Assembly: GCA_023134705.1 (NCBI GenBank)
Contig: JAGLUN010000051.1
Location: forward strand, 3,362-67,361
DNA length: 64,000 nt
Origin: Candidatus Omnitrophota bacterium
Lineage (GTDB): Bacteria; Omnitrophota; Gorgyraeia; Duberdicusellales; 4484-171
Reading direction: 5' to 3'
Shown here: positions 1-54,016 of the stretch, piece after piece
Numbering within the stretch: position 1 is the first letter of the stretch
How the letters are laid out: every line of letters begins with the position of its first letter
The notes under the pieces: generated by a model
The model's database searches: none
The model's input: only the letters and a program-made list of their open reading frames with translations
Told to the model about the DNA's origin: nothing
Position numbers and translations under genes: made by a program

Positions 1-1
1 T

Positions 2-1156
2 AAAAGGCTGAAAAAACACTTAATTATTAACAATAGTCTGCCTAAAACCATACTCGGTAAAATTAAACGCTACGAAGTAGAAAAAAAGTACGCTCATATA
101 ACAGAAGAGAAAGAAGAAAGAACAAAAGAATTATCACCTCAGGATTTAGAATTGTTAGCTTCCCCCATTTGCGGCAGAACTTTAGCCTATTTTTCCGCTG
201 AATTAAAACGGCCGCTTAACTTAGACGATCATTTAGAGCTGGACCTGGGTTTGGATTCTTTAGAACAGATAGGTTTATTTTTCGGATTTCAAGACGCTCT
301 TAGTGTAGAAATAAGCGAGGAGCAATTTCTCGGCGTATCCACTATCCGCGGCGTTTTAAAAAAGATAAAGGCTTCTTCTGAAGCAGCATCTTTAAAAGAA
401 ACAGCCCTAAACTGGCGGGAGATTTTACATTCGCCGGTTAAAGAAGACATAAAAGCATCCATATCTTTACGGCAATCTTCTACCGCAAAAGTCATTAATA
501 TTATTTTTTTGTGGATGCTGAAATTCATAACCCATACGGTTTTTCCTCTGAGAGTAAACGGTAAAGAGAATTTGCCGGAGAAAGGCCCTTTTATTTTATG
601 CCCTAACCATACCAGTTACCTGGACGGATTGATCCTGGCTTCTTCTCTGGATTCCTCTGCCCTTTTTAAGACTTACTTCCTGGGGTTTGCCGCTTATCTC
701 AAGCATCCTTTAATTGTTTGGACAAACAAGCTTTTGAGATTAATTCCTATAGATACTGCTTCAAGCTTAATGGACAGTTTAAAAATGTGTGCTTTTATTT
801 TGGGTGAGTCTAAAATATTATGCATGTTCCCGGAGGGGATCCGTTCCACTAATGGTAAACTCGGGGAGTTTAAGCGGGGGGTCGGAATCCTTGTTAAGGA
901 ATTGAATGTTCCGGTAGTTCCCGTGTATATCCGGGGTACTTATGAGGCCTGGCCTTTTTTTAAAAGACTGCCGAAATTGAATAAACTAAGCCTTTCTTTC
1001 GGTAAATTGTTAACCCCTGGGGAACTTGCCTCAGGAGGAGAATATAAGGTTGACATTTATAAAAATATAGTTGATAATTTAAAGCGAGAGATTTTGAATT
1101 TACAAAAAGAAAATGTGGTAGAAAGTAAAAATGAAATTGGGATTAATAAAAATTAA
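2..1156 (+). CDS. 3' part of a fusion protein: AMP-binding (acyl-CoA/acyl-ACP synthetase) C-terminus + phosphopantetheine-binding ACP domain + PlsC-type lysophospholipid acyltransferase (Aas-like). The 5' end lies outside the window.
   Basis: The open frame from position 2 reads LPKTILGKIKRYEVEKK, the C-terminal signature of AMP-binding enzymes. It is followed by LGLDSLEQIGL (PP-binding DSL serine), then the acyltransferase motifs NHTSYLDG (HxxxxD) and FPEGIRSTNGK (PEGTR). It is in frame with the listed ORF 152..1156. Confidence 0.6.
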   Translation, partial: KRLKKHLIINNSLPKTILGKIKRYEVEKKYAHITEEKEERTKELSPQDLELLASPICGRTLAYFSAELKRPLNLDDHLELDLGLDSLEQIGLFFGFQDALSVEISEEQFLGVSTIRGVLKKIKASSEAASLKETALNWREILHSPVKEDIKASISLRQSSTAKVINIIFLWMLKFITHTVFPLRVNGKENLPEKGPFILCPNHTSYLDGLILASSLDSSALFKTYFLGFAAYLKHPLIVWTNKLLRLIPIDTASSLMDSLKMCAFILGESKILCMFPEGIRSTNGKLGEFKRGVGILVKELNVPVVPVYIRGTYEAWPFFKRLPKLNKLSLSFGKLLTPGELASGGEYKVDIYKNIVDNLKREILNLQKENVVESKNEIGINKN

Positions 1157-1571
1157 ACACCTCCTTTCAAGAGACAAAAGGAAGACCGAACGCCTTATAC
1201 TGGGGGGGAATCTTTGGTATCGGCTTGGTTTTTCTCAGAAATGGACGGGCCCGTTGCCTATAGAAAATATCAGCGGCGGCGGAATTAACTTCAGATATAA
1301 AAAAAGCTTTAAGAAAAATACCGTGATAAATCTTATGATAAGTTTTCTTGGTGAAAGCGAACCTATAATCGTAAAAGGTAAAGTGACCTGGTGTAAGGCA
1401 ATGACCCCTCGCAAAACTTTAAACAATGAAGTTTTACCGGGGGGCTACAAAACAGGCGTTAAGTTCTTCAAGATGGATTATAATGACCGCCGCAAATTCA
1501 TAGATTACTTTAGCGAAAAGGTCATTACTAAATACCTGGATGCCGAAGGGAGAATGGAATCAGAAAAATGA
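1131..1571 (+). CDS. PilZ-domain protein (putative c-di-GMP receptor)
   Basis: RDKRKTER (RxxxR) is followed about 25 aa later by ENISGGG (D/NxSxxG), the two PilZ c-di-GMP binding motifs. The protein is small (146 aa) and its start overlaps the preceding gene. Confidence 0.55.
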   Translation: MKLGLIKIKHLLSRDKRKTERLILGGNLWYRLGFSQKWTGPLPIENISGGGINFRYKKSFKKNTVINLMISFLGESEPIIVKGKVTWCKAMTPRKTLNNEVLPGGYKTGVKFFKMDYNDRRKFIDYFSEKVITKYLDAEGRMESEK

Positions 1572-2410
1572 GTTTAGTAAAAACTACTGCGATAATATCC
1601 AGCGAGACGGATTTACAGACTTTTCTTAAATCTGTCGAGTATAGAGTTGTACGGAATAAAGAAGAGCTAAAGAAATCCTGCGCTCTCGTGTATAACGAAT
1701 ACATCAAAAGAGGTTATATGGAAAAAAATTTTTCCGGGTTAAGGATTTCAATCTATAACGCTTTTCCTCAAACAACTACTTTCATTGCCATTGTCGAACA
1801 CGAAGTCATAGCCACAGCTACTATAATACCTGATCTTTCTTTTGGGCTGCCGATGGAAACGACATACCATGAAGAACTTGAGAGATTCCGGAAGGAGAAC
1901 AAAAAGATTTGTGAGATATCTATGTTGGCCAGTGACACTGACCTTTTTAGCAGCGGAGCTTCAATGATGCTTCAGTCTAAAAAAATGTTTTTTATTTTCT
2001 TTTTATTCAAACTTATATTCGATTACGCCAAAAATATCCTTAACCTGGATAATATATGTATTACAATAAATCCCAAACACAATCTCACTTATGATTTTTT
2101 ATTATTTAAAAATATGGGTGGATTAAAAACATATTGCGATGCCAATGGGGCACCCGCGATAGCAAAATCCCTGGATTTAAATTCTATTGAAAAGGAATGT
2201 CAGGAAAAGAAAAAAGAAGGTATAGCCAGGATGTTTTTCCGGAGAAAAACCGATCCTGAGAAATTTTCCGGCAAATTTATGTTCAGCCTTCAGGATTTAA
2301 AATATTTTTTCACCGAGAAAACAGATATTTTTAAAAACGCCACCCCTTTTCAACTAGATTGCCTTAAACGCTGCTATCCCGCTTACGACTTCTCAACGAT
2401 TATCCCTTAA
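1568..2410 (+). CDS. GNAT-fold acyltransferase resembling the PEP-CTERM/exosortase-associated N-acyl amino acid synthase (FeeM-like) family
   Basis: 280 aa with a 4-bp start overlap with the PilZ gene. It sits next to an acyl-activating/ACP/acyltransferase gene, which is the context described for exosortase-associated N-acyltransferases. The family assignment rests on overall resemblance, not on a diagnostic motif. Confidence 0.4.
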   Translation: MSLVKTTAIISSETDLQTFLKSVEYRVVRNKEELKKSCALVYNEYIKRGYMEKNFSGLRISIYNAFPQTTTFIAIVEHEVIATATIIPDLSFGLPMETTYHEELERFRKENKKICEISMLASDTDLFSSGASMMLQSKKMFFIFFLFKLIFDYAKNILNLDNICITINPKHNLTYDFLLFKNMGGLKTYCDANGAPAIAKSLDLNSIEKECQEKKKEGIARMFFRRKTDPEKFSGKFMFSLQDLKYFFTEKTDIFKNATPFQLDCLKRCYPAYDFSTIIP

Positions 2411-2654
2411 GGAACGATAAAGAAAAAAATAATCATGAAACCACAGAGGACACCGAGAAATACTCTGGGAGAAGAGATGTCTCCCCCCTTTTGAAGATAT
2501 TAACCACAAAGAACCCAAAGAGCACAAAGTGAATGTTGATGAGTTAAAAAATAAAATTAACCCGCCAAAGGACGGATTTCGCTGGATACTTAATAAAGTG
2601 CTCAACCGCCGAAGGGGCAAATGGGAAAATATTTAAACCACAAGATTACACAGA

Positions 2655-2698
2655 TTCACCCTGTTAGATAATATAATTGAACCATCTAACGGGGTGAA
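2655..2698. other. Strong hairpin: 15-bp stem TTCACCCTGTTAGAT / ATCTAACGGGGTGAA with a 14-nt loop
   Basis: The inverted repeat is read directly from the sequence, with one T/G wobble position. It lies in the spacer between the two copies of the duplicated module. Confidence 0.6.
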
Positions 2699-3057
2699 CA
2701 CAGAAAAAAAGACACAGATAAACGCGGATTTTTTTAATTATGATTTAAAAGCGATATTTTCATATCAATCTTGTGAGAATCTCGTGAAAATTTTGTGGTT
2801 AAAAAATAATCCGCGTTAATCAGCTTAATACATTCCAATATGTGTTCTATCAATACTTTAACGTCTTTTTTCATAAAATAATCTCTTCTTCTTCTAATAT
2901 CTTTTCCTTAAGGAGAGAGTGAAGAGAAATATAGGTAACGATATTTTTACCTCCGGACAAAAATATAAGGTTGACATTTATAAAAATATAGTTGATAATT
3001 TAAAGCGAGAGATTTTGAATTTAAAAAAAGAAAGTGTGGTAGAAAATAAAAATTAAA

Positions 3058-3488
3058 TTGGGATTAATAAAAATTAAACACCTCGATTCAAGAGATAAAA
3101 GGAAGACCGAACGCCTTATGCTGGAGGGAAATCTTTGGGATAGGCTTGGTTTTTCTCAGAAATGGACCGGCCCTTTGCCTATAGAAAATATCAGCGGCGG
3201 CGGAATTAACTTCAGATATAAAAAAAGCTTTAAGAGAAATTCCGTGATAAATCCTATGATAGGTTTTCTTGGTGAAGGCGAACCTATAATCGTAAAAGGT
3301 AAAGTGACCTGGCCTAAGGCAATGCCTCCAGGCAAAACTTTAAACAATGAATTTTTACCGGGGGCTGCAAAACAGGCGTTAAGTTCTTCAAGATGGATTA
3401 TAATGACCGCCGCGAATTCATAGATTACTTTAGCGAAAAGGTCATTATTAAATACCTGGATGCCGAAGGCAAAATGGAATCAGAAAAA
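3058..3488 (+). pseudogene. PilZ paralog disrupted by a frameshift (G6 to G5 homopolymer) inside the duplicate copy
   Basis: It is identical in frame to the PilZ at 1131..1571 up to codon 101. From there the reading frame shifts, and the original C-terminus continues in another frame up to 3488. This could be a real pseudogene or a homopolymer sequencing error. Confidence 0.5.
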
Positions 3489-4300
3489 TGAGTTTAGTGA
3501 AAACTACTGCGGCAATATCCCGCGAGACGGATTTACGGACTTTTCTTGGACCTGTCGAGTATAGAGTTGTACGGAATAAAGAAGAGCTAAAGAAATCCTG
3601 CGCTCTCGTGTATAAAGAATACATAAAAAGAGGTTATATGGAAAAGAATTTTTCCGGGTTAAGGATTTCGATCTATAACGCTTTTCCTCAAACAACTACT
3701 TTCATTGCCATTGTCGAACAGGAAGTCATAGCCACAGCTACTATAATACCTGATCTTCCTTTTGGGCTGCCGATGGAGAAGACATACCATGAAGAACTTG
3801 AGAGATTCCGGAAGGACAACAAAAAGATTTGTCAGATATCTATGTTGGCCAGTGACAGCGAGCTTTTTAGCAGCGGAGCTTCAATGATGCTTCAGTCTAA
3901 AAAAATGTTTTTTGTTTTCTTTTTATTCAAACTTATGTTCGATTACGCTAAGAATATCCTTAACCTGGATAATGTATGTATTACAATAAATCCCAAACAC
4001 AATCCCACTTATGATTCTTTATTATTTAAAAATATGGGCGGATTAAAAACATATTCCGATGCCAATGGGGCACCCGCGATAGCAAAATTCCTGGATTTAA
4101 ATTCTGTCGAAACAGCCAGGATGTTTTTCTGGAGAAAAGCCGATCCTGAGAAATTTTCCGGCAAATTTATATTCAGCCATCAGGATTTAAAATACTTTTT
4201 CACCGAGAAAACAGATATCTTTAAAAACGCCACCCCTTTTCAACTAGATTGCCTTAAACGCTGCTATCCCGCTTACGACTTCTCAACGATTATTCCTTAA
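3488..4300 (+). CDS. Divergent paralog (270 aa, intact) of the GNAT-like N-acyl amino acid synthase-like protein
   Basis: It aligns over its full length to 1568..2410 with scattered substitutions and one 10-aa deletion. The frame is intact. Confidence 0.4.
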   Translation: MSLVKTTAAISRETDLRTFLGPVEYRVVRNKEELKKSCALVYKEYIKRGYMEKNFSGLRISIYNAFPQTTTFIAIVEQEVIATATIIPDLPFGLPMEKTYHEELERFRKDNKKICQISMLASDSELFSSGASMMLQSKKMFFVFFLFKLMFDYAKNILNLDNVCITINPKHNPTYDSLLFKNMGGLKTYSDANGAPAIAKFLDLNSVETARMFFWRKADPEKFSGKFIFSHQDLKYFFTEKTDIFKNATPFQLDCLKRCYPAYDFSTIIP

Positions 4301-4380
4301 GGATTTCACTTTGGATTATAATTTAAACTTTTATTTTCGGTTTTCTATTTTATGGTGTCTTGAATCTGGTATCTATTCAG

Positions 4381-4640
4381 AATTGATATTACGAGTATCT
4401 AGCATCCAGTATCGAGCTTCGCGTATCGCGTATCGAGCATCGCGTATTGCGTATCGAGTATCTAGCATCGAGGATCCAGGATCCAGGATCGAGGATCTAA
4501 AAGATTGTTCCTCATCTTTCGTCCCTCGTCCAAGTGAACGAAGTGAACGGTCGTCTCTCGTTCCTCGTTTTTCCTGTCCCCTCTCTTCTGTTCTCTAATT
4601 TTTATCTTCTAACGAGCATCTAGGATCAAGGATCTAAAAG
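4381..4640. repeat. Family-A composite intergenic repeat: CGCGTATCG-type octamer array, GATCCAGG/GATCGAGG units, then a CGTCCCTCGTC tract
   Basis: Tandem 8-9 bp units are read directly. The same composite recurs at 5521, 7834, 24496, 51271 and 57420. Confidence 0.8.
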
Positions 4641-4776
4641 GTTACATAAAGTTACTTAAAGTTACATAAGGTTACTTAAAGTTGCTTTAACGTGAAGCAA
4701 CCTTCCCTAACCTTAAGTAACGTTCTCAAAGTAACCTTCTTTAAGTAACCTTATTAGCCATCGACCATTGACTTCC
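4641..4776. repeat. Family-B element: imperfect palindrome built from GTTAC units phased every 10-11 bp, ending in GCCATCGACCATTGACTTCC
   Basis: The left arm is GTTACATAAAGTTACTTAAAGTTACATAAGGTTACTTAAAGTTGC. The centre is TTTAACGTGAAGCAACC. The right arm is the reverse-complement GTAACC units. Confidence 0.8.
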
Positions 4777-4801
4777 TTTGGGGTGTAGGGATAGAAGGGG
4801 C

Positions 4802-5143
4802 TTATTTCAAATATTCTTTTATTTTCAGCATTTTATTTTTTATATCCGGGATGTCCCGTAGTACAACTTCTAAAGTTAATTTCAAATCTATGCCGAAATA
4901 TTCATGTATAAGGATATCCCTCATACCGGCAATCTTTTTCCATGGAATCTCCGGATATTTTTCTTTTATGTCATCGGAAATATTCTTAACTGCTTCCCCG
5001 ATAATTTCGATACGGCGAATAACGGAATCCTGAAGCTGGACAGAGCCAAAAAAGTCATTGTCTGTTTTATCCCGCATATACTTTTCAACCAGCTCAATAG
5101 ATTCCAATATATGTTCTATCAATACTTTAACGTCTTTTTTCAT
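4802..5143 (-). CDS. hepT: HepT-like HEPN toxin (DUF86) of a HepT/MntA toxin-antitoxin pair
   Basis: It carries the Rx4HxY motif (RDILIHEY) and is 113 aa. It overlaps the upstream partner by 4 bp. Confidence 0.75.
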
Positions 5144-5427
5144 AAAATAATTTCTTGTTCTTCTAATATCTTTTCTTTAAGGAGGGGGTGAAGAGAAGCG
5201 TAGGTGACGATATCTACTTTTCTCCCCAGTAACTCCTGAAGTTCCAATTTTAAACCTACCAGATCTAATAAACTTTTTTTTTCTCCAAACTCAATAAGCA
5301 AATCAATATCACTTTCCTTTGTGATTTCGTTTCTTACAACCGAACCAAAAAGGGCGGCTTTTTTTACATTATGCTTTTTCAGTATTTTGTGAAAAACCTT
5401 TTTTATTTCATCAATCTGGATATCCAT
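5140..5427 (-). CDS. mntA: MntA-like minimal nucleotidyltransferase antitoxin
   Basis: It carries [17 protein letters not shown] (the GS...DxD nucleotidyltransferase motif). It is 95 aa and translationally coupled to hepT. Confidence 0.75.
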
Positions 5428-5636
5428 AAGTAGATTTGCTAAGGCACCCGTGAATAATAATGAAACAACTTAGTCCGATTATATAATAGCTTTATGTGCT
5501 TGTCAATAAAACCAGCGTTTTCTATTCGCGTATCGCATATCGAGGATCTAACAGATTATTCCTCCTCTCTCGTCCTTCATCTCTATATTCTTTACGAGTA
5601 TCGAGCATCGAGGATCTAGCATCAAGGATCTAAAAG

Positions 5637-5672
5637 GTTACATAAAGTTGCATAAAGTTACATAAGGTTGCG
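5637..5672. repeat. Family-B forward arm (GGTTACATAAAGTTGCATAAAGTTACATAAGGTTGCG) on the left of the four-helix-bundle gene
   Basis: It has the same phased GTTAC units as 4641..4690. The matching reverse arm lies at 6108..6225, on the other side of the gene. Confidence 0.7.
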
Positions 5673-6128
5673 TTTTTTTCGCAGCTTTGCGCCGGGGACT
5701 TTCCATGTTCCTTCCCGCTCCATCTTATACAAAGATTTAAGATATTGTCCAGTCATATAAGTCGCGCTTTGAAATAATTTCGAAAATGCGTCGAATTCTT
5801 TTTTGCTAATCAATCCGTCATCTTTGCAATCTTCAACATCGCCGCTTAATTCTTCTAAAGAACCCAGACTAATTCTAATGCTATGGATATATTCACCTAG
5901 AGTTCCTTTTCTATATCCCTCCCGTATATTTTGTTTTGCGCTTCTTGCGGCATCTCTCATTTGCGAAATCAGTCTTAGATGTATTGTTGAAAATCTTTTC
6001 GTTATTTTATGAATGAACTTACGTATTTGATAAATATCCTGATAAAATTTTAGCTTTTCATAGGCCAGAGTTTCCCGTCTTTCGTGTATTCTTTCGTCCA
6101 TTTCCTCTCTAACCTTCCCTAACCTCAA
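5658..6128 (-). CDS. Four-helix-bundle protein of the 23S rRNA intervening-sequence-associated family
   Basis: It carries ARSAKQNIREGYRKGT and SIRISLGSLEEL, the family core motifs (compare SxxNIAEG ... SxxExxxxL). It is 156 aa. Confidence 0.65.
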   Translation of the reverse strand: MRLGKVREEMDERIHERRETLAYEKLKFYQDIYQIRKFIHKITKRFSTIHLRLISQMRDAARSAKQNIREGYRKGTLGEYIHSIRISLGSLEELSGDVEDCKDDGLISKKEFDAFSKLFQSATYMTGQYLKSLYKMEREGTWKVPGAKLRKKRNLM

Positions 6129-6225
6129 GTAACTTTCTTAACGTAACCCTCTCAACGTAACCTTCTCTAACTTTAAGTAACTTTCTCAATGTACCCTTCC
6201 CCATGTAACCTTATGTACCCTTCCC
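6108..6225. repeat. Family-B reverse arm (GTAACC/TAACC units) on the right of the four-helix-bundle gene
   Basis: The sequence AACCTTCCCTAACCTCAAGTAACTTTCTTAACGTAACCCTCTCAACGTAACCTTCTCTAAC is nearly identical to 7783..7830 and 53880..53960. Confidence 0.75.
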
Positions 6226-6860
6226 TATCTAATGCGATAGCCCTCTACTATCTTCTCGAATTTTTTTTGAACACAAGAACGAATTCTTAAATTGGTTATT
6301 TTCCTTATCCATCCTTTCGCGTTCTTTAAATGAAATTGCTCTGAAAAATGCAGCTCAGGAAAATATCCAAACTGTTTTTTTTTACGGCAAGACAAATACA
6401 GGCTGTCAATTAAGGCCTTTTCAGGCTCAGCGATTAAGAATTCACCTTTTCCTTTAGACCAACAGAACCCGTCAAAGAATGAGGGGGCAATACGATGAAA
6501 AGAAAACACGCCTATTTTTGTTGATATAACTTTTGTATGAACCAGGGATGCGAGAGTAATTACTTGAGGTATTTGTTCAACTATTCCATAAAGATGTAGA
6601 GCACTCACAAAAGAAACATATGCCCTATGCCGGGGAAGTAGAAAAGGGATAATATTATAAGGGCTTACATATTTATCCCCCTTCTCATACCACAGGCCCC
6701 TATAAACTTTTACAAGAACACTCTCTTTTTCCAAATTATTCAAGGCCTGCGTTACAACAGACAAAGATTTACCGGAAAGGGCAGCGATTTCACGCGTCGT
6801 AAAAACTTTTCGGCCTAACTGCTTAATAAACTTTAAAACGGAACTTCTACGTTTTTCCAT
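6225..6860 (-). CDS. abiEi: AbiEi-like antitoxin/transcriptional regulator (N-terminal wHTH)
   Basis: It sits immediately downstream of an AbiEii-type nucleotidyltransferase and overlaps it. It has an N-terminal wHTH-like segment and is 211 aa. Confidence 0.5.
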   Translation of the reverse strand: MEKRRSSVLKFIKQLGRKVFTTREIAALSGKSLSVVTQALNNLEKESVLVKVYRGLWYEKGDKYVSPYNIIPFLLPRHRAYVSFVSALHLYGIVEQIPQVITLASLVHTKVISTKIGVFSFHRIAPSFFDGFCWSKGKGEFLIAEPEKALIDSLYLSCRKKKQFGYFPELHFSEQFHLKNAKGWIRKITNLRIRSCVQKKFEKIVEGYRIR

Positions 6861-7623
6861 TTATCAACTCATCTATAAAATTACACACCTTCAGTTTAAT
6901 CCCATCCCATACAGAACGCGTATCATACACATTCTGATCTTCGACAGAGAGATAAGAAACCACACTATCACGAAACTGTTCAAAACTGATTTCAAGTACA
7001 TTCTGATACGCCTTTTTTAAAATATTCTTTTCAATAAGTAATGCCCGGCTCTTGTCATATTGTGAACTCAAAAGATGAAGGTCAAAAACATCTCTTGCTT
7101 GAAGAAAAGCCCTTGTAACTAATGCTTTTATCTTTTGGCTCACCATAGAATCCGCGTCATAGTGAGGAACTAAAATCGGCGGCAGCTTATAGGCCCGCAA
7201 TACAGTATCCATAACTTCTTCTACCCGTACGCCTTCTTTAAAACCTCTCCTTGAAAATTCAATTTTAATAAATAAATCCTCTCCGCTTGCGGTTATCAAA
7301 TGGACTTTAAATGGCTGGGTAGTTTGTGTTTGCTTTGCTTTTTTTATATCCGGAGGAATTATCTTTTCAATACCAAAAGGTCTAAGTGTGTCCTGAAATG
7401 ATTGGGAATTAAGGACATTCATTACCATTTCAATAAGAGTATCAACGGCTACCCTTTCTACATCCAAATCTATATCTTCTGAGTAACGAATACTGTGAAA
7501 GAAAAAGCGCAAATTTACTCCACCCTTTAAAACATAGGTATCGGGTTTGAGCTTTCTCCCAAGCCATCGTAAGAATTCTAAATGAAATACCTCTCTTACT
7601 TGTAACGGGCTGTTTATTAGCAT
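6847..7623 (-). CDS. abiEii: AbiEii/AbiGii-family nucleotidyltransferase toxin (DUF1814)
   Basis: It carries LKGGVNLRFFFHSIRYSEDIDLDVE, matching the family signature LKGGTxL...R.SEDIDL. It is 258 aa. Confidence 0.7.
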   Translation of the reverse strand: MLINSPLQVREVFHLEFLRWLGRKLKPDTYVLKGGVNLRFFFHSIRYSEDIDLDVERVAVDTLIEMVMNVLNSQSFQDTLRPFGIEKIIPPDIKKAKQTQTTQPFKVHLITASGEDLFIKIEFSRRGFKEGVRVEEVMDTVLRAYKLPPILVPHYDADSMVSQKIKALVTRAFLQARDVFDLHLLSSQYDKSRALLIEKNILKKAYQNVLEISFEQFRDSVVSYLSVEDQNVYDTRSVWDGIKLKVCNFIDELINGKT

Positions 7624-7690
7624 TATAATTATGTATTATAGTTTAGTTATAACTAAATTTCAATACATTACTAAAAAGGTTAGATAAACG

Positions 7691-7833
7691 ATTACATAAA
7701 GTTATTTAAAGTTGCATTAACGTTACGTAACCTTCTTAACGCAACCTTCCCTAACCTTAAGTAACCTTCTCTAAGTAGCCTTCTCTACGTAACCTTCCCT
7801 AACCTCAAGTAACTTTCTTAACGTAACCTTCTC
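7691..7833. repeat. Family-B palindromic element with a short forward arm and a long reverse arm
   Basis: The sequence runs ATTACATAAAGTTATTTAAAGTTGCATTAACGTTACGTAACC, followed by phased GTAACC units. Confidence 0.8.
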
Positions 7834-7925
7834 ATCTCACTTGTATCTCTATATTCTTTGCGAGTATCTAGCATCGAGCATCCAGCATCTAAAGTGTTAT
7901 CCCTCATCTTTCGTCCCTCGTCTCT
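7834..7925. repeat. Family-A repeat segment (GCATCGAGCATCCAGCATC units, then CGTCCCTCGTC)
   Basis: It has the same units as 4396..4560. Confidence 0.7.
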
Positions 7926-8106
7926 TGAATTCCGGTGACTCAATGCTTAATTATTAACCACAAGATTGTAGAATCTGCAACAAACTTTTTAAAATCCTTT
8001 TCAAAATTCTCTTTTAGTGCTATTCTATAATTGTTTTACAAAGAAACGTAATAGTTTAATTATTCATTTTATGGGAGAGTAAACATTTAGGAGAAATTAG
8101 TTTTAT

Positions 8107-9681
8107 ATGGAAAAATATCTTATCTATAGCTTTTCAGGTGAACTGGACGATATATCTCATTTATTTCCTAACGAGAGATTAGCGCATATTGCGTCTATAA
8201 TAAATGCTTTAGGGAAAGAAGTTGCGATTTGGGATAGGGGGAATATTGATACACTAATTGCCTATGGAGCAGAAAAGATTAAGGAATTTGGAGATTTAGC
8301 TTTCGAAGATTTAAGCGATGATTATTTGAGCCTTGTTGAAAAAGAAGCAAGCAAAATAATTGAAGGTGGATTTGGTATGATTTTCCTTAATCTATGGCAG
8401 GGTTCCGGATTTAAGTTCTCAATGGACTTGGCAGAATTTTTAAAGACAAAGAGTGATGTTAAAATCTATGGGATTGGCCAGAAAGTCGATTGGTTTAAAG
8501 AGGATATTTTAAAAATAGCACCCTATATAGACGGCCTGATTTTAGGTTTAGGATTTGAGGCTATAGAAAGGATGATGGCCGGAGAAAAAGTAGAAACCAT
8601 TCCTAATTTGATATTGAGAGCAAAAGGGGGGGATTTGGTTTTTACTCTCAGAGAGGCCGTAACCAATATAAATACTCTCCCTCTACCCATTTATAATTCC
8701 AGAATATATACGGGAATTGGGGGGAAGATTCCTCTTTATCATATTGCCTTGTCTAATCAAGCCTGCCCTGGAAGATGTACTTTTTGTGAAAGGCCGGAAA
8801 ATTACGGGAGAAAGATTGTAAGAAGAGATATAAATATGGTAATAGATGAGCTTAGATATTTAATGGATAGCTGCAATGCGAGGTATTTTAGAATAGCTGA
8901 TTCGACTCCTCCGCCTCAATCCCTGACTGAACTCGCGAAGGCTATCATTTCCTCCGGCCTCCATAAGAAAGGCATTCATCTGTCAGCCTTCTCAAGAATA
9001 GATATAAATAGAAAAGAAGATTTCCCGGTTCTAAAAAAGGCGGGATTTGAAACTTTGTTCTTTGGTATAGAGTCGTTGGATAACGGAAATTTAGAGCGGA
9101 TAAATAAATGCATAACTTATACAGATATAAAAACTACTTTAGAAGAAGCATGTAAGGCAGATCTCTTTGTTGTCGGTAGTTTTATCTTTCCTATACCCGG
9201 GGAAACTAAAAAATCAATGGAAAATACACTCACAAGGCTTAATGAAATTAAAAAATACCTAAATTCTGCATTATTACAGCCTGCCGGAGTATATCCTTCA
9301 ACTGATTGGGGAAGAAATCCTAAAAAATACGGGATATTGCTTTCGCCAGATTATGTTAAGGAAGCTTTAATATATCCTATAAAACTTCTTATACCTATGA
9401 GATTCTGGACTCCCTTTCCATTTACCTACCGTATAATGGAAAAAGAAGCTGAAGATGTCAAATTTGAAGATATCATTTTAGTTTTTGAGCAGTTCTATAA
9501 AGCAGTAAGGACAGAAATAGGCATTCCAGGGATTCAAGATTATGGTCTCCTCATTGCCAAGATGCTTAAAAAGGATCCTCTTGAATTCACAAATGAAAGC
9601 ATAAAATATATGGTTACAAGGGATTATGCTAAAATAAAACAGATTGTAGAAGAAACTCAAAGAGGTCTTTCATGCCAGTGA
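8107..9681 (+). CDS. B12-binding-domain radical SAM protein (class B)
   Basis: It carries CPGRCTFCE (CxxxCxxC) in mid-protein. The N-terminal third is Rossmann-like and cobalamin-binding-like. It is 524 aa. Confidence 0.6.
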   Translation: MEKYLIYSFSGELDDISHLFPNERLAHIASIINALGKEVAIWDRGNIDTLIAYGAEKIKEFGDLAFEDLSDDYLSLVEKEASKIIEGGFGMIFLNLWQGSGFKFSMDLAEFLKTKSDVKIYGIGQKVDWFKEDILKIAPYIDGLILGLGFEAIERMMAGEKVETIPNLILRAKGGDLVFTLREAVTNINTLPLPIYNSRIYTGIGGKIPLYHIALSNQACPGRCTFCERPENYGRKIVRRDINMVIDELRYLMDSCNARYFRIADSTPPPQSLTELAKAIISSGLHKKGIHLSAFSRIDINRKEDFPVLKKAGFETLFFGIESLDNGNLERINKCITYTDIKTTLEEACKADLFVVGSFIFPIPGETKKSMENTLTRLNEIKKYLNSALLQPAGVYPSTDWGRNPKKYGILLSPDYVKEALIYPIKLLIPMRFWTPFPFTYRIMEKEAEDVKFEDIILVFEQFYKAVRTEIGIPGIQDYGLLIAKMLKKDPLEFTNESIKYMVTRDYAKIKQIVEETQRGLSCQ

Positions 9682-10349
9682 AAGTAGTAGAGGTAAAAGA
9701 AGTAACTAAAGATTTTTATTTAGGGAAAACCGTAATTCAGGCATTATGGAAGCTGAGCATTAATGTGGAAGATGGTGAGTTTATAGCCATCGCCGGCCCT
9801 TCAGGAAGCGGTAAAACTACGCTTCTTAATCTTATCGGCTGTATTGATAACCCGACTTCCGGAACTATAAAAATTGATGACGTGCAGGTAAACAATCTTT
9901 CCTCTAATAGATTAGCCGAACTACGAGCCTCTAAAATAGGTTTTATATTCCAAAGTTTTAATTTGATTCCTGTACTTTCAGGATTTGAAAATGTAGAATA
10001 TCCCCTTTTGAAAAAAAGAATGAATAAAGATGAACGGAAAAAAAGGGTTACTGCTGTTTTAGAAAATGTGGGATTGGAAAAATTTATCGAGCATAGACCC
10101 GATGAATTAAGCGGCGGCCAACGGCAAAGAGTAGCTATAGCCAGAGCTTTGGTTTCTAATCCTAAGATTATATTGGCGGATGAACCAACGGCTAATCTGG
10201 ATCATTCCACAGGAATAGATATTTTGAACCTTATGAAAAAAATAAATAAACTTTCAGGAACTACTTTTATCTTTTCTACGCATGACCCTAAAATAATAAA
10301 TATAGCGGACCGGATAATAAATCTATTTGACGGACAACTTTCAAAATAA
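9672..10349 (+). CDS. ABC transporter ATP-binding protein (MacB/LolD type)
   Basis: It has Walker A GPSGSGKTT, the signature LSGGQRQRVAIARAL and Walker B ILADEPT. Confidence 0.85.
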   Translation: MPVKVVEVKEVTKDFYLGKTVIQALWKLSINVEDGEFIAIAGPSGSGKTTLLNLIGCIDNPTSGTIKIDDVQVNNLSSNRLAELRASKIGFIFQSFNLIPVLSGFENVEYPLLKKRMNKDERKKRVTAVLENVGLEKFIEHRPDELSGGQRQRVAIARALVSNPKIILADEPTANLDHSTGIDILNLMKKINKLSGTTFIFSTHDPKIINIADRIINLFDGQLSK

Positions 10350-10356
10350 TCTGTAA

Positions 10357-11586
10357 TTGTTAGATATTATGTGTCTTAAGATAGCCATACGAAATGTCTT
10401 TAGAAATAAAGTAAGGACGATAATTACTCTTTTGGCAATAACTTTTGGTTGTATGTCTTTAATTTTAATCGGTGGTTTTATCCATGACGCTTTGACTACT
10501 TATAGAGACAGCATTATATATAGCCGTTTAGGGCACATACAAATTGCCAAAAAGGGTTTTTTTAAAGAAGGGACAATTAAACCCTTCGATTACATGATTG
10601 ATAATCCTGAAGAATTGAGGGAAGCACTCGATTCTTTAGACCACATAGAAAGAATAACTCCCCGGCTTCAATTTGTAGGCCTTCTCAGCAAGGGAGAAAC
10701 AACGTTTCCTTTTTTGGCCGAAGGAATCGATCCTGCCGGAGAGAAGTCTTTAAGTTCATACATTGAATTTGAAAAGGGTGAAAATCTTTCCAAAGGGGAT
10801 AATTACACGATTATTTTAGGAAAAGGCCTTGCGCGGGCAATCGGGGCGGACGTTGGTGACGATATGATTATACTTACCAATACAATCGAAGGTGGAATGA
10901 ACGCTCTTGACGTTAAAGTAAAAGGTATTTTTTACACTTCTTCAAAAGAATATGATGATCATTTTTTAAGAATACCGGTTCGGACAGCCCAATATTTACT
11001 TCAGACAGAGAAAGTTCAGAAATTTATCGTTATCTTAGATAAAACGGCAAACCTTAAAAAAGTCACAAATAGACTTGACGATTTTTTTGTAAAAAACAAT
11101 CTTCCTCTTGAATATAAAACTTGGTTTGACCTGGCGGAATTTTATAATAAACTTGTCGCGGTATATGAACGCCAGCTTAAAGTAATCAATATTATCATTT
11201 ACATTATTGTTATTTTAAGTATCAGCAACACTATGAGTATGGCCATATTTGAACGCACAAGAGAGATAGGTACGATTATGGCGTTAGGCGCTAAAAGGCA
11301 TGAAGTCTTATTCCTTTTTATTTTAGAAGGGGCTGTCTTAGGCGCCATAGGCAGTTTATTAGGTATCGGAGGCGGTATCTTTTTTGCCCATCTAATTTCC
11401 TGGATAGGTATTCCTATGCCTCCCGGCCCGGGCATCTCAGTAGGTTGGATAGGTAAAATCGCGGTAGTACCCGCGGTAGTATGTATATCTTTTTTTCTTT
11501 GTATGATTTCTGCAGTAATTTCTTCATTCTATCCCGCGTTTAAAGCAAGTAGACTTAATGTGGCGGAAGCTTTGCGCTATGTATAA
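10357..11586 (+). CDS. FtsX-like ABC permease (MacB/LolCE family) with a large periplasmic domain
   Basis: It has an N-terminal transmembrane segment, a periplasmic domain and three C-terminal transmembrane segments. It is 409 aa and directly follows the ATPase. Confidence 0.7.
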   Translation: MLDIMCLKIAIRNVFRNKVRTIITLLAITFGCMSLILIGGFIHDALTTYRDSIIYSRLGHIQIAKKGFFKEGTIKPFDYMIDNPEELREALDSLDHIERITPRLQFVGLLSKGETTFPFLAEGIDPAGEKSLSSYIEFEKGENLSKGDNYTIILGKGLARAIGADVGDDMIILTNTIEGGMNALDVKVKGIFYTSSKEYDDHFLRIPVRTAQYLLQTEKVQKFIVILDKTANLKKVTNRLDDFFVKNNLPLEYKTWFDLAEFYNKLVAVYERQLKVINIIIYIIVILSISNTMSMAIFERTREIGTIMALGAKRHEVLFLFILEGAVLGAIGSLLGIGGGIFFAHLISWIGIPMPPGPGISVGWIGKIAVVPAVVCISFFLCMISAVISSFYPAFKASRLNVAEALRYV

Positions 11587-12385
11587 AAGAGTATTTCTTC
11601 TAATAGCTGTTGTTTTTATCATTCCTGCAGGAGTTTTTGCTGTTTTTCCACAAGAAACTTTACCCACTATTGAACCCACCAGCGAAGTTAATGGAGTTAA
11701 GCGTATATCCTTATTTACTCCGGAGGAAATTTTAGAAAAATCAGACATGATAAGATCCCCAAATTTTGATTTTTCAGTTGAAGTAATAATTACCAGTTTT
11801 AGATCTAACAGAGAAACAACTGTCAGCCGTTATGAAACTATGATAAAAGAAAAAGATAAAACTTTGGTGAAAAGCGTCTATCCCCCGCGAGATAAAGGAA
11901 GAATCATTCTTATGCGTGGTTGGGATTTATGGATTTATTTACCTACTGTTTCCCGCCCGATCCGTATTTCACCGCGTGAAAGATTATTTGGAGAGGTATC
12001 ATATGGTGATATTGCCCGTATTAACTTTACTCACGATTATAATCCCGTTTTACTGGGGATAGAAAAAATAGACGAGAAAGAATATTATGTTCTTGAGCTT
12101 AATGCCGAAAATGAAAGGGTAACCTACCATAAAGTTATTTATTTCGTCGAAAAAAACACATTCAATCCATTTAAGGCGGAATTTTACGCTGTTTCGGGTA
12201 TCCTTCTTAAGGAGTGTTTGTATGAAGATTATCGTTATGTGTTAGGAGAATCCCGTCCGATGAAGCTCATTATTACCGATAAGCTTGTTAAAGGAAAAAA
12301 ATCAATAATGGAATATAAAAATATGACAAAAGCCGATTGGCCGGAAAAGATATTTAACAAATTTTACCTGAAGAAATTGAAATAA
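11579..12385 (+). CDS. LolA-like / DUF1329-like outer-membrane lipoprotein-sorting family protein (secreted)
   Basis: It has the signal peptide MYKRVFLLIAVVFIIPAGVFA. Its size and position after a MacB-like pair fit this family. The family call rests on resemblance. Confidence 0.4.
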   Translation: MYKRVFLLIAVVFIIPAGVFAVFPQETLPTIEPTSEVNGVKRISLFTPEEILEKSDMIRSPNFDFSVEVIITSFRSNRETTVSRYETMIKEKDKTLVKSVYPPRDKGRIILMRGWDLWIYLPTVSRPIRISPRERLFGEVSYGDIARINFTHDYNPVLLGIEKIDEKEYYVLELNAENERVTYHKVIYFVEKNTFNPFKAEFYAVSGILLKECLYEDYRYVLGESRPMKLIITDKLVKGKKSIMEYKNMTKADWPEKIFNKFYLKKLK

Positions 12386-12479
12386 AAAGGAAAGGTTTCG
12401 AGTTTGTTTTTTCGTTTTTTGGAAAACAGCATTTGAATTTATAAAAAGTATTTTTTTGTCTAATCTATTTATATCCGAA

Positions 12480-13829
12480 ATGAGAAAGACTTATGGATAT
12501 ATAATTATATTAACTCTCGTTTCTTTAATGCCTTTTTTCTCGAATGGAAAAGAACTTCCTCAAATTTTGTTGAAAGAAGAATCTCGGGAATTTGAGCCTC
12601 TTCCCTTTCCTTTTTCTGTTTCTCCTCCTTCCGGCTTCTTAAAAAGCGAATTTGCCTGCAGGGTTGTATCTTCTACAGAATGGACTAAAATGCGCAATAT
12701 TTTTCAAACATCTCTCCGGGGAGAATTGTTTGAAAATATAAAATTTAAATTTACCGGCCGCGCCTTCTATGATGCTGTATTCGCTTTAACTAACAATTTT
12801 TCAAGCGGAGTAAAAGATGACCATGGCCATGAAATTTGTTTAAGAGAAGCGTTTCTTGATTTTCCTTTGGGGGGGTGGGATTTTAGAATAGGTAAACAAC
12901 AAATTGTCTGGGGTGAAGCTGTGGGGATATTCCTTGCCGATATTGTAAACGCTAAAGATTTAAGAGAATTCATCTTGCCGGATTTTGACTTTATTCGGTT
13001 ATCACAATGGGCGGTTAACGCCGAATATTACTTAGAGAAATTTCATTTCGAACTAATATGGCAGCCTATTCTTGAATTTAATGAATTAGGTGTTCCTGGT
13101 TCTGAATTCGCTTTATCATTTCCTCCAAAACCGTTACCTTACATAATTACCGAAACAGATACTCCCGCTAATAGTTTAAAGAACGGCGAAGCTGGAATTC
13201 GTTTGTCTCATTCCGCTGAAACTTTTGATACAAACCTTTTTTATCTTTATTGTTTTGAAGATAATCCTATTTGGTTTCGTTCGATTGCTTCCACGTCAGC
13301 CGGGGCTACTTCTTTTGTTAACCTTCGATATAAACGTCAACATCAGATTGGCCTGACTTTTTCCAAAGAGTTAATTCCATTCATGGTAAGGGGAGAGTTC
13401 CTTTATACGACACCTAAGTATTTATCTGTATTAGACGCAACAGATGAAGATGGGGTAATTAAAAAAGAGATATTGGACTATGTACTGGGCATGGATTATA
13501 CGTTTTTTAAAAAAGTAGATTTTAATATGCAATTCGTTCAACACCTGATTTTTAATTACGACTCCCGTCTTCCCGAAGACCAAACAACAAGTTATTTATC
13601 ATTGCGGGCTGCTGCCGGATTTTTAAACAATGCGATTGAACCCGAAGTGTTTTTTATGTCCAATTTGTCCCAATCTGATTATCTGTTCCGCCCAAAGGTG
13701 AAATTCAATGTGAATGATGCCTGGCAGGTAAACGTTGGCGGCGATTTCTTTGGCGGGAAAACAATGAGTTTCTTTGGCCAATTTAAGGATAGAGACAGGG
13801 TATATTTAGAAGCCAAGTATGCTTTTTAA
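12480..13829 (+). CDS. DUF1302-like outer-membrane beta-barrel protein
   Basis: It has a signal peptide, the RIGKQQIVWGEA motif, alternating beta-strand-like segments and a C-terminal ...KYAF aromatic end typical of outer-membrane barrels. The start may be at 12456. Confidence 0.4.
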   Translation: MRKTYGYIIILTLVSLMPFFSNGKELPQILLKEESREFEPLPFPFSVSPPSGFLKSEFACRVVSSTEWTKMRNIFQTSLRGELFENIKFKFTGRAFYDAVFALTNNFSSGVKDDHGHEICLREAFLDFPLGGWDFRIGKQQIVWGEAVGIFLADIVNAKDLREFILPDFDFIRLSQWAVNAEYYLEKFHFELIWQPILEFNELGVPGSEFALSFPPKPLPYIITETDTPANSLKNGEAGIRLSHSAETFDTNLFYLYCFEDNPIWFRSIASTSAGATSFVNLRYKRQHQIGLTFSKELIPFMVRGEFLYTTPKYLSVLDATDEDGVIKKEILDYVLGMDYTFFKKVDFNMQFVQHLIFNYDSRLPEDQTTSYLSLRAAAGFLNNAIEPEVFFMSNLSQSDYLFRPKVKFNVNDAWQVNVGGDFFGGKTMSFFGQFKDRDRVYLEAKYAF

Positions 13830-13964
13830 AAATATGCCTTTTACGACAGATAATTAATGAGGATCCCCAATAGGGAATTGTTTGTTCCTATTTGTGAAGA
13901 TTTTGTTTGTAATTATTCGTAAAGTAATATAAAAAACATGGAAAATCGATAAGGAGGTTAATCT

Positions 13965-14669
13965 ATGTTTCAAAAAAAAGTGTTTATTATAAATACCATA
14001 ATTATAGGTATTCTTTTTGCTATTTCTAGTCTACTATCAGGGCTAATCTACAATGCTTTACGAATAATGAGCGGCCTCTATTTTAATCTATTTTTTATAT
14101 TTATCCTGCTGATTTCCGTAATGATATTTTATGTAATTTTCCTTTTATTCATCATTATCTACTATCGTACACTTTTAGCTTTTATCCCTCACCAAGAAGA
14201 TACAGTTTATTTGACTGAGAAAATTCCTTATCAGACCAGACAGCAATTAAGGACTATTCTTACCGGTGTAGCTTCAGACATAGCCACGCCTATATTATAC
14301 TATTTTTCTGATTGGCTGAAATTATTTGGTGCAAAAGTTGGAAAGAATTTTGTTCTCCGGGGAAAAGTTTGTAATCCTGAGTTGCTTGAAATTGGAAATA
14401 ACGTGCTTATTGGAAATAGCAGCTTCATTACTGCTCATTTGAAAGATGGAGTTCGGCTTATTTTCAAAAAAATAAAAATAGGGCATAATTGTACTATCGG
14501 GGTTAAAAGTATACTTTTTCCCGGGGTGGAGATTGGTGATAATTCAATTATTGGCGCCTATTCATTACTCCCGAAAGATATGAAAATTCCTCCTAATCAG
14601 GTTTGGGCCGGGATACCGGCAAAGAAAATAAAAGATATTGAAATTAAACACAGCCATTTAGATAAATAA
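13965..14669 (+). CDS. Membrane-anchored hexapeptide-repeat (LbH) acyl/acetyltransferase
   Basis: It has two N-terminal transmembrane helices. The C-terminal half carries I/L/V-G-x-N hexapeptide repeats (IGNNVLIGNSSFI, IGHNCTIGVKSILFPGVEIGDNSIIG). Confidence 0.5.
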   Translation: MFQKKVFIINTIIIGILFAISSLLSGLIYNALRIMSGLYFNLFFIFILLISVMIFYVIFLLFIIIYYRTLLAFIPHQEDTVYLTEKIPYQTRQQLRTILTGVASDIATPILYYFSDWLKLFGAKVGKNFVLRGKVCNPELLEIGNNVLIGNSSFITAHLKDGVRLIFKKIKIGHNCTIGVKSILFPGVEIGDNSIIGAYSLLPKDMKIPPNQVWAGIPAKKIKDIEIKHSHLDK

Positions 14670-14671
14670 GA

Positions 14672-15895
14672 ATGAAAACTATAGCAATGATTCCTAACGG
14701 ACATATTTTATCTCACCTTGTGAGGCTTTTGGTAATTGCCAGGGAATTACGCTCAAGGGGGCATAAAGTGATTTTTGCCGGCTCCGGTAAATATATGCAA
14801 ATAGCCGAAGATGAAGGGTTTGACGTATCCCTTCTTCTTGAAGCCGAGCATGAAAAATTAATGGCCGCCGTTAGAAAAAATAAAATAAACTTTATAAGTT
14901 TTAATGAGCTGGAACCCTTAGTTAAGGCAGATATAGAATTCTATAACAAAGTAAAGCCCGATTTAGTTCTTTCGGATGGAAGAATAAGCGCTATTGTTTC
15001 CAGCAGAATCCGTAAGGTACCGCATGGAGCCGTGGTTAACGCTTCTTCAACCGGCTATAGGGCTATTCCTTATGTGCCTTTATTCCCGTTTCTTTCAAAG
15101 ATACCTTTTAAAAAAAACTTCATATTCCAGGAATTGAACGTAAAGATTGAATGCGCGGTGTTTGATTTGTTTATGAGGGCATATACTAAGTTAAGCCGCA
15201 AATATAAATTAACCAGGCCTGTAAAGACGTCACAATTTTTAACCGGCTCTGATTTCACCTTACTTCCCGATATCCCTGAATATTTTCCTACATGTAATCT
15301 TCCCGAAAATTTCCATTATATCGGGCCGCTTCCCTGGGAAAGTAAACTTCCCCCTCCTTCCTGGATTAATGCGCTTAAAAAAGATTCCCCGGTAATTTAC
15401 ATAACTATGGGGTCCACAACTCCGGAAGATATTTATCAGTATATCCAGCGGGTTTTTACGAAATTGGATTACCAGGTTGTGCTTACTACCGGCGGCCAGG
15501 TGAGAAGCGAAATTATATCTTCAATGTCCGTTCCCGGAAAGATATTTGTAGAAAACTACGTAAATGGGGATCTTGTTATGCAAAAGAGTAATGTAGTAAT
15601 CTGCCATGGCGGGAATGGAACCATTTATCAAGCTATAAAAAATGGCGTTCCGATTGTAGGGATTCCCACTCACCACGACCAGGCATATAACATGAAAAGA
15701 GTGGAAAATCTGGGGATAGGGATAAAAGTCAGTTATGAACAATTTACAAAAGCTCCTTTGTCTTTGTTGAACGATTTAAAAAGAATTTTTTCTAATAATT
15801 CTTTCAGGGAAACAATTAGCAAATACCAAAAGATAGTGAATGCGTACACTCCGGCAAAAACAGCAGTTAACATTATAGAAGAGAGGTATATGTGA
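14672..15895 (+). CDS. GT1-family UDP-glycosyltransferase (MGT/UGT-like)
   Basis: It carries VICHGGNGTIYQAIKNGVPIVGIPTHHDQAYN, matching the UGT signature HGGxGT ... P ... DQ. It is 407 aa. Confidence 0.7.
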   Translation: MKTIAMIPNGHILSHLVRLLVIARELRSRGHKVIFAGSGKYMQIAEDEGFDVSLLLEAEHEKLMAAVRKNKINFISFNELEPLVKADIEFYNKVKPDLVLSDGRISAIVSSRIRKVPHGAVVNASSTGYRAIPYVPLFPFLSKIPFKKNFIFQELNVKIECAVFDLFMRAYTKLSRKYKLTRPVKTSQFLTGSDFTLLPDIPEYFPTCNLPENFHYIGPLPWESKLPPPSWINALKKDSPVIYITMGSTTPEDIYQYIQRVFTKLDYQVVLTTGGQVRSEIISSMSVPGKIFVENYVNGDLVMQKSNVVICHGGNGTIYQAIKNGVPIVGIPTHHDQAYNMKRVENLGIGIKVSYEQFTKAPLSLLNDLKRIFSNNSFRETISKYQKIVNAYTPAKTAVNIIEERYM

Positions 15896-15902
15896 TATGT
15901 AA

Positions 15903-17667: not shown

Positions 17668-17821
17668 CTTTCTTTCACCTCCTTCTTTTTTAGATTTTTT
17701 GTGACTTGAATTGTCACTCTTTGTGAATAAATTTTTACGTCCCATTTTACTTCTCCCTCCTTTCTTCTTTTGTGTTTTGTTTTTTCATTATTTGTTATTT
17801 TCCTGCTATTCGCTTTAGTTT

Positions 17822-17839: not shown

Positions 17840-18035
17840 ATAGGGGTTTTTGTTAGTATTTTTTTATACACGCAGATTTTTTCGTATCGCGTATCGAGTA
17901 TCGCGTATTGCGTAAAGAAAGTCGATAGTTAATAGCTGATAGTGGGAAAAGTAAGGCGTTAAATAGTTTTACGAGTTAGCGAGTTGAACGAGTTTAACGA
18001 GTTTTAATGAAAAGGATAGAGGTTTTTTATGAAAA

Positions 18036-18140: not shown

Positions 18141-18192
18141 GTCTGCCATAGGCTCTTCCAAAGGCAGATCCTCCTCATTATGGTGGGAAAAT

Positions 18193-18336: not shown

Positions 18337-18340
18337 TATT

Positions 18341-53990: not shown

Positions 53991-54016
53991 TTTGTGAGTT
54001 TGTGACATAGAACACT

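Follow-up and report, generated by a model that had tools for sequence, protein, structure and literature searches.

Tandem duplication of a PilZ and FeeM-type synthase gene pair in a Candidatus Omnitrophota genome, and the probable decay of its second unit

When two neighbouring genes are duplicated together and one of the new copies is broken, does an open reading frame (ORF) in the other copy mean that selection is keeping it? This question is raised by a locus in a metagenome-assembled genome (MAG) of Candidatus Omnitrophota bacterium (GenBank assembly GCA_023134705.1, contig JAGLUN010000051.1, positions 3,362 to 67,361 of the forward strand). These 64,000 nucleotides are referred to below as the window, and coordinates are those of the window unless another contig is named. 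Near its left end, a PilZ gene and the gene for a FeeM-type N-acyl amino acid synthase occur twice in the same orientation. A preliminary description of the sequence took this for a recent segmental duplication, in which selection might have retained the second acyltransferase, possibly with altered specificity, while the regulatory PilZ copy decayed. We arrive at a different reading of the open frame. The locus is likely to be a tandem duplication of an ordinary kind, with decay affecting the whole of the second unit, and the second acyltransferase copy is probably a catalytically dead open frame.

Self-alignment of the window reveals a direct repeat in which positions 1026–2413 (segment A) recur at 2947–4303, limits slightly wider than the 1031..2412 and 2951..4302 given in the preliminary description. 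With gaps excluded there are 77 substitutions in 1357 aligned columns (5.7%), rising to ~7.8% divergence once the 1-bp and 30-bp gaps are counted, in line with the ~7% first estimated. These two gaps, one G in a homopolymer and the 30-bp gap, are the only indels between the repeat arms. A second repeated block, which had been overlooked, lies further to the right (2818–2944 and 5087–5213, 90% identity), which shows that a unit larger than segment A was duplicated in tandem, head to tail. Unit 1 (~1026–2944) and unit 2 (~2947–5213) share order and orientation: the tail of an upstream fusion gene, PilZ, FeeM, spacer X and a hepT/mnt remnant are followed by a tail remnant, PilZ′, FeeM′, spacer Y, hepT and mnt. 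The left edge of the duplicated unit falls inside the 3′ end of the fusion gene, also unremarked before, and the right edge of unit 2 falls inside mnt at ~5213. The parts of the locus are as follows.

152–1156, plus strand: 3′ part of the fusion gene, AMP-binding/FadD-like, PP-binding/acyl carrier protein (ACP) and PlsC-type acyltransferase (PF01553 and PF00550 on the window ORF)
1026–2413, plus strand: segment A of unit 1, with the fusion-gene tail, PilZ copy 1 and FeeM-like copy 1 (by alignment to 2947–4303)
1050–1078, plus strand: sigma-70-like motif TTGACA-17-GATAAT, 11 of 12 positions to consensus, with an identical copy at 2971–2999 (consensus match only)
1131–1571, plus strand: PilZ copy 1, intact, 146 residues (PF07238, 36.2 bits against a cut-off of 22.5)
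1568–2410, plus strand: FeeM-like N-acyl amino acid synthase copy 1, 280 residues, KAS99_04010 (PF21926, 111.8 bits)
2192–2221, plus strand: 30 bp forming codons 209–218 (KECQEKKKEG), shared by copy 1 and all close outgroups, an exactly in-frame gap in copy 2
2414–2817, no strand: spacer X of unit 1, unique sequence, not alignable with spacer Y
2818–2944, minus strand: remnant H′, which closes unit 1 on the right and combines 57 nt from the start of hepT with 74 nt from the end of mnt (90% identity to 5087–5213)
2944–2947, no strand: novel junction, MNT fragment joined to fusion-gene tail (also in the second assembly, L001)
2947–3051, plus strand: fusion-gene remnant, the last ~36 codons, bearing the promoter-like motif and lacking a start codon (tblastn to residues 862–897, 89%)
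3052–3491, plus strand: PilZ copy 2, pseudogene, with ATT at 3052–3054 and G5 at 3360–3364 (14 non-synonymous and 2 synonymous changes on its branch)
3488–4300, plus strand: FeeM-like copy 2, open 270-residue frame, KAS99_04030 (PF21926, 116.6 bits)
4304–5086, no strand: spacer Y of unit 2; the part before hepT (4304–4801) is composed of short intergenic repeat modules found elsewhere in the window as well
4802–5427, minus strand: HepT (4802–5143) and MNT (5140–5427) toxin-antitoxin pair, intact (PF01934; PF01909/PF18765)

Since the source is a MAG, the tandem arrangement might itself be an artefact of assembly, with strain variants stitched together head to tail or paralogues mis-phased. A single 91-kb NCBI contig carries both synthase copies, each annotated there as an intact hypothetical protein, and a second assembly, from ENA (L001, sample SAMN18200499), matches window positions 1–12410 at 99.887% without gaps. 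L001, which may share reads with the MAG of the window, has both copies, the same G5 and G6 runs and the same junction at ~2944–2947 between the MNT fragment and the fusion-gene tail, which is seen nowhere else. The parents of this junction share no long k-mer, and thus a mis-join in an assembly graph could not have made it. All 14 mismatches between L001 and the window lie in one 150-bp tract (1103–1253; L001 4567–4717), flanked by 61–62-bp stretches that are identical in both copies; each time L001 copy 1 has the base of copy 2, and the start codon of PilZ copy 1 is among the changes (ATG to ATT). Gene conversion or mis-phasing by the assembler would produce such a tract. We lean towards mis-phasing, since in L001 the copy-1 allele is missing and that of copy 2 appears in both places; in the window the two alleles of each variable site are used once apiece.

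A further feature that an artefact might explain is a mosaic in a related MAG. Contig L003 (GCA_030619315.1, JAUXBN010000146.1, 1–2275; 2275 bp) combines the unique left flank of unit 1 and an intact copy-1-type PilZ with spacer Y of unit 2. Its synthase gene is copy-1-type up to the equivalent of ~2097 (E116, L173, F177) and copy-2-type over 2119–2305, including the 30-bp deletion. This contig could reflect a collapse of the duplication by unequal crossover or, alternatively, chimeric assembly. Its possible status as the ancestral, unduplicated state is ruled out by derived copy-2 states (the deletion, W, A and H) that the outgroups lack. Mis-phasing could swap variants, but could not create the junction or remnant H′, and spacers X and Y are entirely different. 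An artefactual origin of the duplication therefore seems to us quite improbable.

The two spacers cannot be aligned with each other, and unit 1 is without the body of hepT. A BLAST search of spacer X against the window returned only chance-level or short-repeat matches of 28–44 nt; nor could X be aligned with the HepT body. No known RNA was found in either spacer by Rfam (window 1–9000, E ≤ 0.1).

If the duplication is real, the condition of the genes in unit 2 becomes the central issue, and for PilZ it is clear. By its profile match and by the motifs read from its sequence, RxxxR (R17KTER21) and NxSxxG (N46ISGGG51), PilZ copy 1 is predicted to be of the cyclic di-GMP (c-di-GMP) receptor type, and its stop codon overlaps the start of FeeM-like copy 1 (ATGA). 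In unit 2 the start codon has been lost, a point missing from the preliminary description (G at 1133 is T at 3054, so that ATG at 1131–1133 reads ATT at 3052–3054). The G6 run at 1439–1444 of copy 1, ACCGGGGGGCT, is a G5 run at 3360–3364 of copy 2, ACCGGGGGCT, as had been reported; this shifts the frame after codon 102 and brings in a premature stop at 3421–3423. The shifted frame ends 65 nt before the synthase ATG, and the ATGA overlap is gone in unit 2. No complete single-frame PilZ domain is left: a 121-residue ORF from a TTG codon scores 18.1 bits on PF07238, under the cut-off. Even when the frameshift is repaired, copy 2 reaches only 111.4 bits on a hidden Markov model (HMM) of the family, against 143.0 bits for copy 1, and it has replacements at conserved sites (Y30D, L68P, C88P and Y106C); residue 30 is Y or F in 33 of 33 homologues. 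Given this low score after repair and these four replacements, PilZ copy 2 appears to be decaying whatever the length of the G run, which agrees with the earlier claim of a decaying PilZ copy.

The G5 run was also considered, in the preliminary description, as a possible sequencing error that would leave both copies functional; an assembly error or a reversible slipped-strand switch would have the same consequence. No feature of a consensus sequence is more error-prone than homopolymer length, but G5 is found in both assemblies, the loss of the conserved ATG is independent of it, and the 14 non-synonymous and 2 synonymous derived changes include the four conserved-site replacements. A run of 5–6 G is short for phase variation, a reading that we reject on this ground and for the other lesions in PilZ copy 2. 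We regard two functional PilZ copies as highly improbable.

The second synthase gene requires more careful consideration, since it is indeed a full-length open frame with a clean 30-bp in-frame deletion, as first described. Both copies belong to PF21926 (cut-off 27 bits), and copy 1 matches PDB entry 2G0B (FeeM) with a phmmer E-value of 6e-18. The AlphaFold 2 model of copy 1 (predicted local distance difference test score 89.2) has a GNAT-like fold, and the top Foldseek matches of the model are the 2G0B chains (E = 1.5e-14, template modelling score on the target 0.83), followed by LasI and BjaI. Copy 1 and its homologues also share a conserved, all-helical C-terminal extension of ~80 residues.

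Four changes in copy 2 bear on its function. The first is at Glu116 (codon 1913–1915 in copy 1), a catalytic-type residue that is invariant in 104 of 104 homologues and is replaced by Gln in copy 2 (E116Q, CAG at 3833–3835). In the phmmer alignment E116 is matched to Glu at index 96 of the FeeM chain 2G0B and is the only Glu within five residues; in the copy 1 model it lies in strand 114–122. Glu95 of FeeM is the proposed active-site residue, and the change E103A at the equivalent Glu of Nas354 abolished activity (PMC4897644). Two further replacements, L173P (4004–4006) and F177S (4016–4018), fall in helix 169–177 of the copy 1 model, beside the NPKH motif; position 173 is L in 80% and P in 0% of homologues. 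Finally, the ten deleted residues would lie within helix 207–213 and the start of helix 217–225, and they include C211 (80% conserved) and G218 (71%). No direct repeats flanking the deletion were seen by eye, and an origin by slippage was set aside on that ground. Scored with an HMM of these 104 homologues, copy 1 reaches 448.8 bits and copy 2 409.0 bits; of this difference ~32 bits are due to the deletion and ~8 bits to substitutions. Taken together, E116Q, L173P, F177S and the deletion suggest that FeeM-like copy 2 is probably catalytically dead, although its frame is undisrupted.

Is there any sign that selection nevertheless keeps this frame open? Pairwise Nei-Gojobori dN/dS between the copies is 0.54 for the synthase (13 synonymous and 28 non-synonymous changes) and 0.61 for PilZ (8 and 20), so the pairwise patterns reveal no asymmetry between the two genes. 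Values of ~0.55–0.6 are what one constrained and one neutral copy would be expected to give. Changes were then assigned to branches using one outgroup, L002, with omega calculated on Nei-Gojobori site counts, as follows (S, synonymous; N, non-synonymous).

Synthase copy 1 branch: 4 S, 8 N
Synthase copy 2 branch: 4 S, 19 N and the 10-codon deletion
Synthase, ambiguous: 6 S, 1 N
PilZ copy 1 branch: 4 S, 2 N
PilZ copy 2 branch: 2 S, 14 N
PilZ, ambiguous: 2 S, 4 N

For the synthase, omega is ~1.2 on the copy 2 branch (~0.7 with ambiguous sites split evenly) and ~0.5 on the copy 1 branch (0.3 with the split). With the observed transition bias, 72% of changes are expected to be non-synonymous under neutrality, and the 19 of 23 seen in copy 2 do not differ from this (p = 0.35). 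The N:S ratio of the unit 2 synthase is also no different from that of the unit 2 PilZ (Fisher p = 1.0). Between the units, derived non-synonymous changes number 33 in unit 2 and 10 in unit 1 (p = 0.0006), derived synonymous changes 6 and 8 (not significant), and the N:S ratios differ (Fisher p = 0.025); a relative-rate test on the synthase alone gives p = 0.052, with low power. The openness of the frame is weak evidence for selection: in simulations an 843-bp frame remained free of stop codons and start loss after 23–30 random substitutions in 47–56% of trials, or with a probability of ~17% if the observed indel is also required to be in frame (a priori ~1/3). We thus find no evidence in these sequences that selection keeps synthase copy 2. 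The preliminary description had proposed that a dN/dS near 1 for this paralogue would mean neutral decay, and on its own branch the ratio is indeed close to 1, although the power of the comparison is low.

The competing view, that the second synthase is kept by selection, as an enzyme of altered specificity, as a non-catalytic pseudoenzyme or as a partner of copy 1, while only PilZ decays, is not without attractions. The 270-codon frame is open and its deletion exactly in frame, all other invariant residues of the family are kept, and older tandem FeeM paralogues exist in a few distant lineages (L025, L037 and L048–L050). The loss of HMM score through substitutions is larger in the PilZ copy (32 bits over 146 residues) than in the FeeM copy (8 bits over 270). 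Several other observations weigh against decay of the whole unit. But for the deletion, copy 2 would be only ~8 bits below copy 1 on the family HMM, and its score for the Pfam FeeM domain is marginally above that of copy 1 (116.6 versus 111.8 bits), because copy 1 has derived changes of its own at fairly conserved sites (K43N, P91S and F201S). The promoter-like motif is kept in identical form upstream of unit 2, which may therefore be transcribed. If the copy-1-like gene with the deletion in L003 is real and functional, the deletion is tolerated. Omega on the copy 2 synthase branch could be as low as ~0.5, the counts being small and the single outgroup only 77% identical in nucleotide sequence. 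The published FeeM numbering is 1–2 off the chain index, the Glu being identified by alignment and invariance, and the mutant evidence in the family concerns a change from E to A (Nas354), not from E to Q as in copy 2.

Against retention by selection stand E116Q at the invariant catalytic-type Glu, L173P and F177S in a conserved helix, a branch omega that is indistinguishable from neutral, an N:S ratio equal to that of the broken PilZ, the appreciable chance that a neutral frame stays open, and the loss of translational coupling to PilZ through the ATGA overlap. The asymmetry between the two genes, which first suggested a retained acyltransferase, is therefore not borne out by the substitutions, and we consider such retention unlikely. 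Because copy 2 has lost the Glu and the ten-residue segment and gained a helix-breaking Pro, its open frame is best read as a pseudogene in waiting and not as a selected second enzyme.

Comparison with relatives places the event in time. We examined 58 loci from the GTDB species-representative collection, among which the window's own species is not represented. The nearest outgroup (P0003 on L002, 76% amino acid identity) has one PilZ and one synthase gene, close relatives are single-copy for the PilZ–FeeM pair, and nearly all loci of related species have one pair; the duplication is therefore derived and lineage-specific. A search for the duplication in related strains had been suggested at the outset, and apart from these single pairs it yielded the mosaic in L003. 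A scan of JGI metagenomes for close relatives found only loci of ≤64% identity, and no further strain with or without the duplication. Exact-protein look-ups of synthase copy 2 and PilZ copy 1 returned the same ENA scaffold or nothing. Synonymous divergence between the copies is 0.08–0.10, compared with a difference of ~1.6% between the copy-1-type sequences of the window and L003. A duplication was thus correctly recognised at first, but by these sequence comparisons it is not very recent.

A simple sequence of events would account for these observations. A segment of more than 2 kb, which began within the 3′ end of the fusion gene, took in PilZ and the synthase and ended inside mnt, would have been duplicated head to tail, with the breakpoints joined at ~2944–2947. 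Unit 1 stayed joined to the complete upstream gene and presumably keeps a working PilZ and synthase, whereas unit 2 was redundant and would have evolved without effective constraint. Its PilZ gene would have lost its start, gained a frameshift and accumulated damaging replacements; its synthase would have been spared a stop or frameshift so far, while losing the invariant Glu and ten structured residues and gaining the helix-breaking Pro. A later deletion or replacement in unit 1 could have left spacer X and the 127-nt HepT/MNT remnant.

The mosaic gene of L003 and the 150-bp tract in L001 allow one more speculative possibility, in which the Q116, ten-residue-deleted paralogue is kept as a partner of copy 1, either non-catalytic or re-specialised, and recurrent conversion and unequal crossover between the two units yield hybrid synthase alleles in the population. 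We think this very doubtful; were it true, the duplication would act, on a small scale, to generate diversity in a lipid-amide pathway of Omnitrophota linked to c-di-GMP. Under our preferred reading of a degenerating redundant unit, the duplication itself is of little import, a textbook case of genome turnover, with one practical caution: the product of an open frame that carries an intact-protein annotation (KAS99_04030) may lack catalytic activity.

The gene context is more useful than the duplication. The arrangement is kept across many Omnitrophota and Scalindua genomes. A module of three genes is conserved, consisting of the FadD-ACP-PlsC fusion, PilZ and the FeeM-type synthase (window 152–2410; L001 1906–5874; loci L004–L043). 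Synthase homologues are found mainly in Omnitrophota, with some in Scalindua and other lineages. PilZ lies immediately upstream of the synthase in ~35 of the 58 loci, again including Omnitrophota, Scalindua and others, and at least 19 have an adjoining FadD-ACP-PlsC fusion gene. The window begins inside this fusion gene, whose full 897-residue version is at 1906–4599 of L001 (PF00501, PF23562, PF00550 and PF01553). Its PlsC domain has a weak NCBIfam match to lyso-ornithine lipid O-acyltransferase (E = 2e-4), and the adjacent gene would be compatible with a supply of acyl-ACP donor for FeeM-type N-acylation. The module suggests a c-di-GMP-linked acyl-amino-acid or aminolipid pathway in these uncultured lineages. 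The sigma-70-like motif, situated 52 nt before the PilZ start and still within the 3′ end of the fusion gene, could serve the PilZ–FeeM pair as an internal promoter; the total number of sigma-70-like sites in the region is not above shuffle expectation. The copy of the fusion-gene tail at 2947–3051, lacking a start codon, is predicted to be non-functional as coding sequence.

Other features of the window may be noted briefly. Directly downstream of the duplication is an islet of small genes of defence or toxin-antitoxin type (4802–7623), comprising HepT/MNT (4802–5427), a 23S rRNA-intervening-sequence family protein (5658–6128) and an AbiEii-type toxin with its upstream partner (6225–7623); this may be a rearrangement-prone spot. 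Short intergenic repeat modules, often flanking small toxin-antitoxin or IVP-type genes, occur at 4376–4790, 5511–5680, 6111–6247, 7695–7922, 17883–17914, 19242–19281, 20740–20883, 24504–24689, 51281–51328, 53758–53991, 58844–58875, 60614–60773 and 61181–61212. They include runs with a 7/14-nt period such as ATCGAGCATCTAGC and 10-nt periodic runs of GTTACATAAA / AACCTTCxCTAA, with palindromes among these runs; none of the modules had an Rfam match within window 1–9000. A second local duplication (18033–18478 and 19407–19956, 82–93% identity, spacing ~1.4–1.5 kb) covers the ends and upstream regions of two adjacent minus-strand ORFs, 18379–19134 and 19857–20567, and a piece of it (19494–19616) recurs at 1645–1767 of L001, upstream of the fusion gene and outside the window. 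A 96-nt direct repeat (60639–60734 and 61082–61177, 91% identity, with a spacing of 443 nt) is also present, close to where small minus-strand ORFs begin. Further downstream, the genes at 8107–17745 suggest a setting in cell-envelope or lipid metabolism: radical SAM, an ABC transporter with MacB/FtsX-type permease, a TP_0789-like protein, DUF1302, a hexapeptide acyltransferase, a glycosyltransferase, a methyltransferase and a PEP-CTERM protein.

How does the locus compare with known systems? Non-functionalisation of one tandem duplicate is a classical fate of duplicate genes, and the head-to-tail units, the novel junction, the truncated end genes, the replacements at an apparently neutral rate, the frameshift and the loss of a start codon all conform to it, as do the signs of conversion or unequal crossover among strains. 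There is nothing unusual here in that one gene of the redundant unit is still an open frame. The closest structural relative of the synthase is FeeM: both copies match PF21926, the copy 1 model has its best structural match there, ahead of acyl-homoserine lactone synthases and GNATs, the NPKH motif is kept and the catalytic-type Glu is kept in copy 1. The differences are an identity of ~28%, the C-terminal helical extension, which FeeM does not have, and the Gln that copy 2 has at the Glu position.

The neighbourhood of an N-acyltransferase gene and a PlsC-family acyltransferase recalls the two-step synthesis of aminolipids by OlsB and OlsA (PMC11631085). The N-acyltransferase is here of the FeeM type, a branch separate from OlsB/GlsB (Pfam 13444; review, PMC11631085), and the PlsC domain is fused to FadD-like and ACP parts, as in Aas-like proteins. 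The resemblance is thus offered as an analogy, short of demonstrated membership. A nearer parallel is provided by Nas343 and Nas354, N-acyltyrosine synthases of metagenomic origin that carry a PilZ-like domain at the C-terminus (Thies et al., 2016; PMC4897644), in which, as here, a FeeM-type synthase is physically linked to a PilZ module. Going by their description, the two parts form a single fused protein there, whereas in the window PilZ is a separate upstream gene with overlapping stop and start codons. What had been reported as a fusion, the joining of a FeeM-type synthase to PilZ, is found here as a conserved gene pair.

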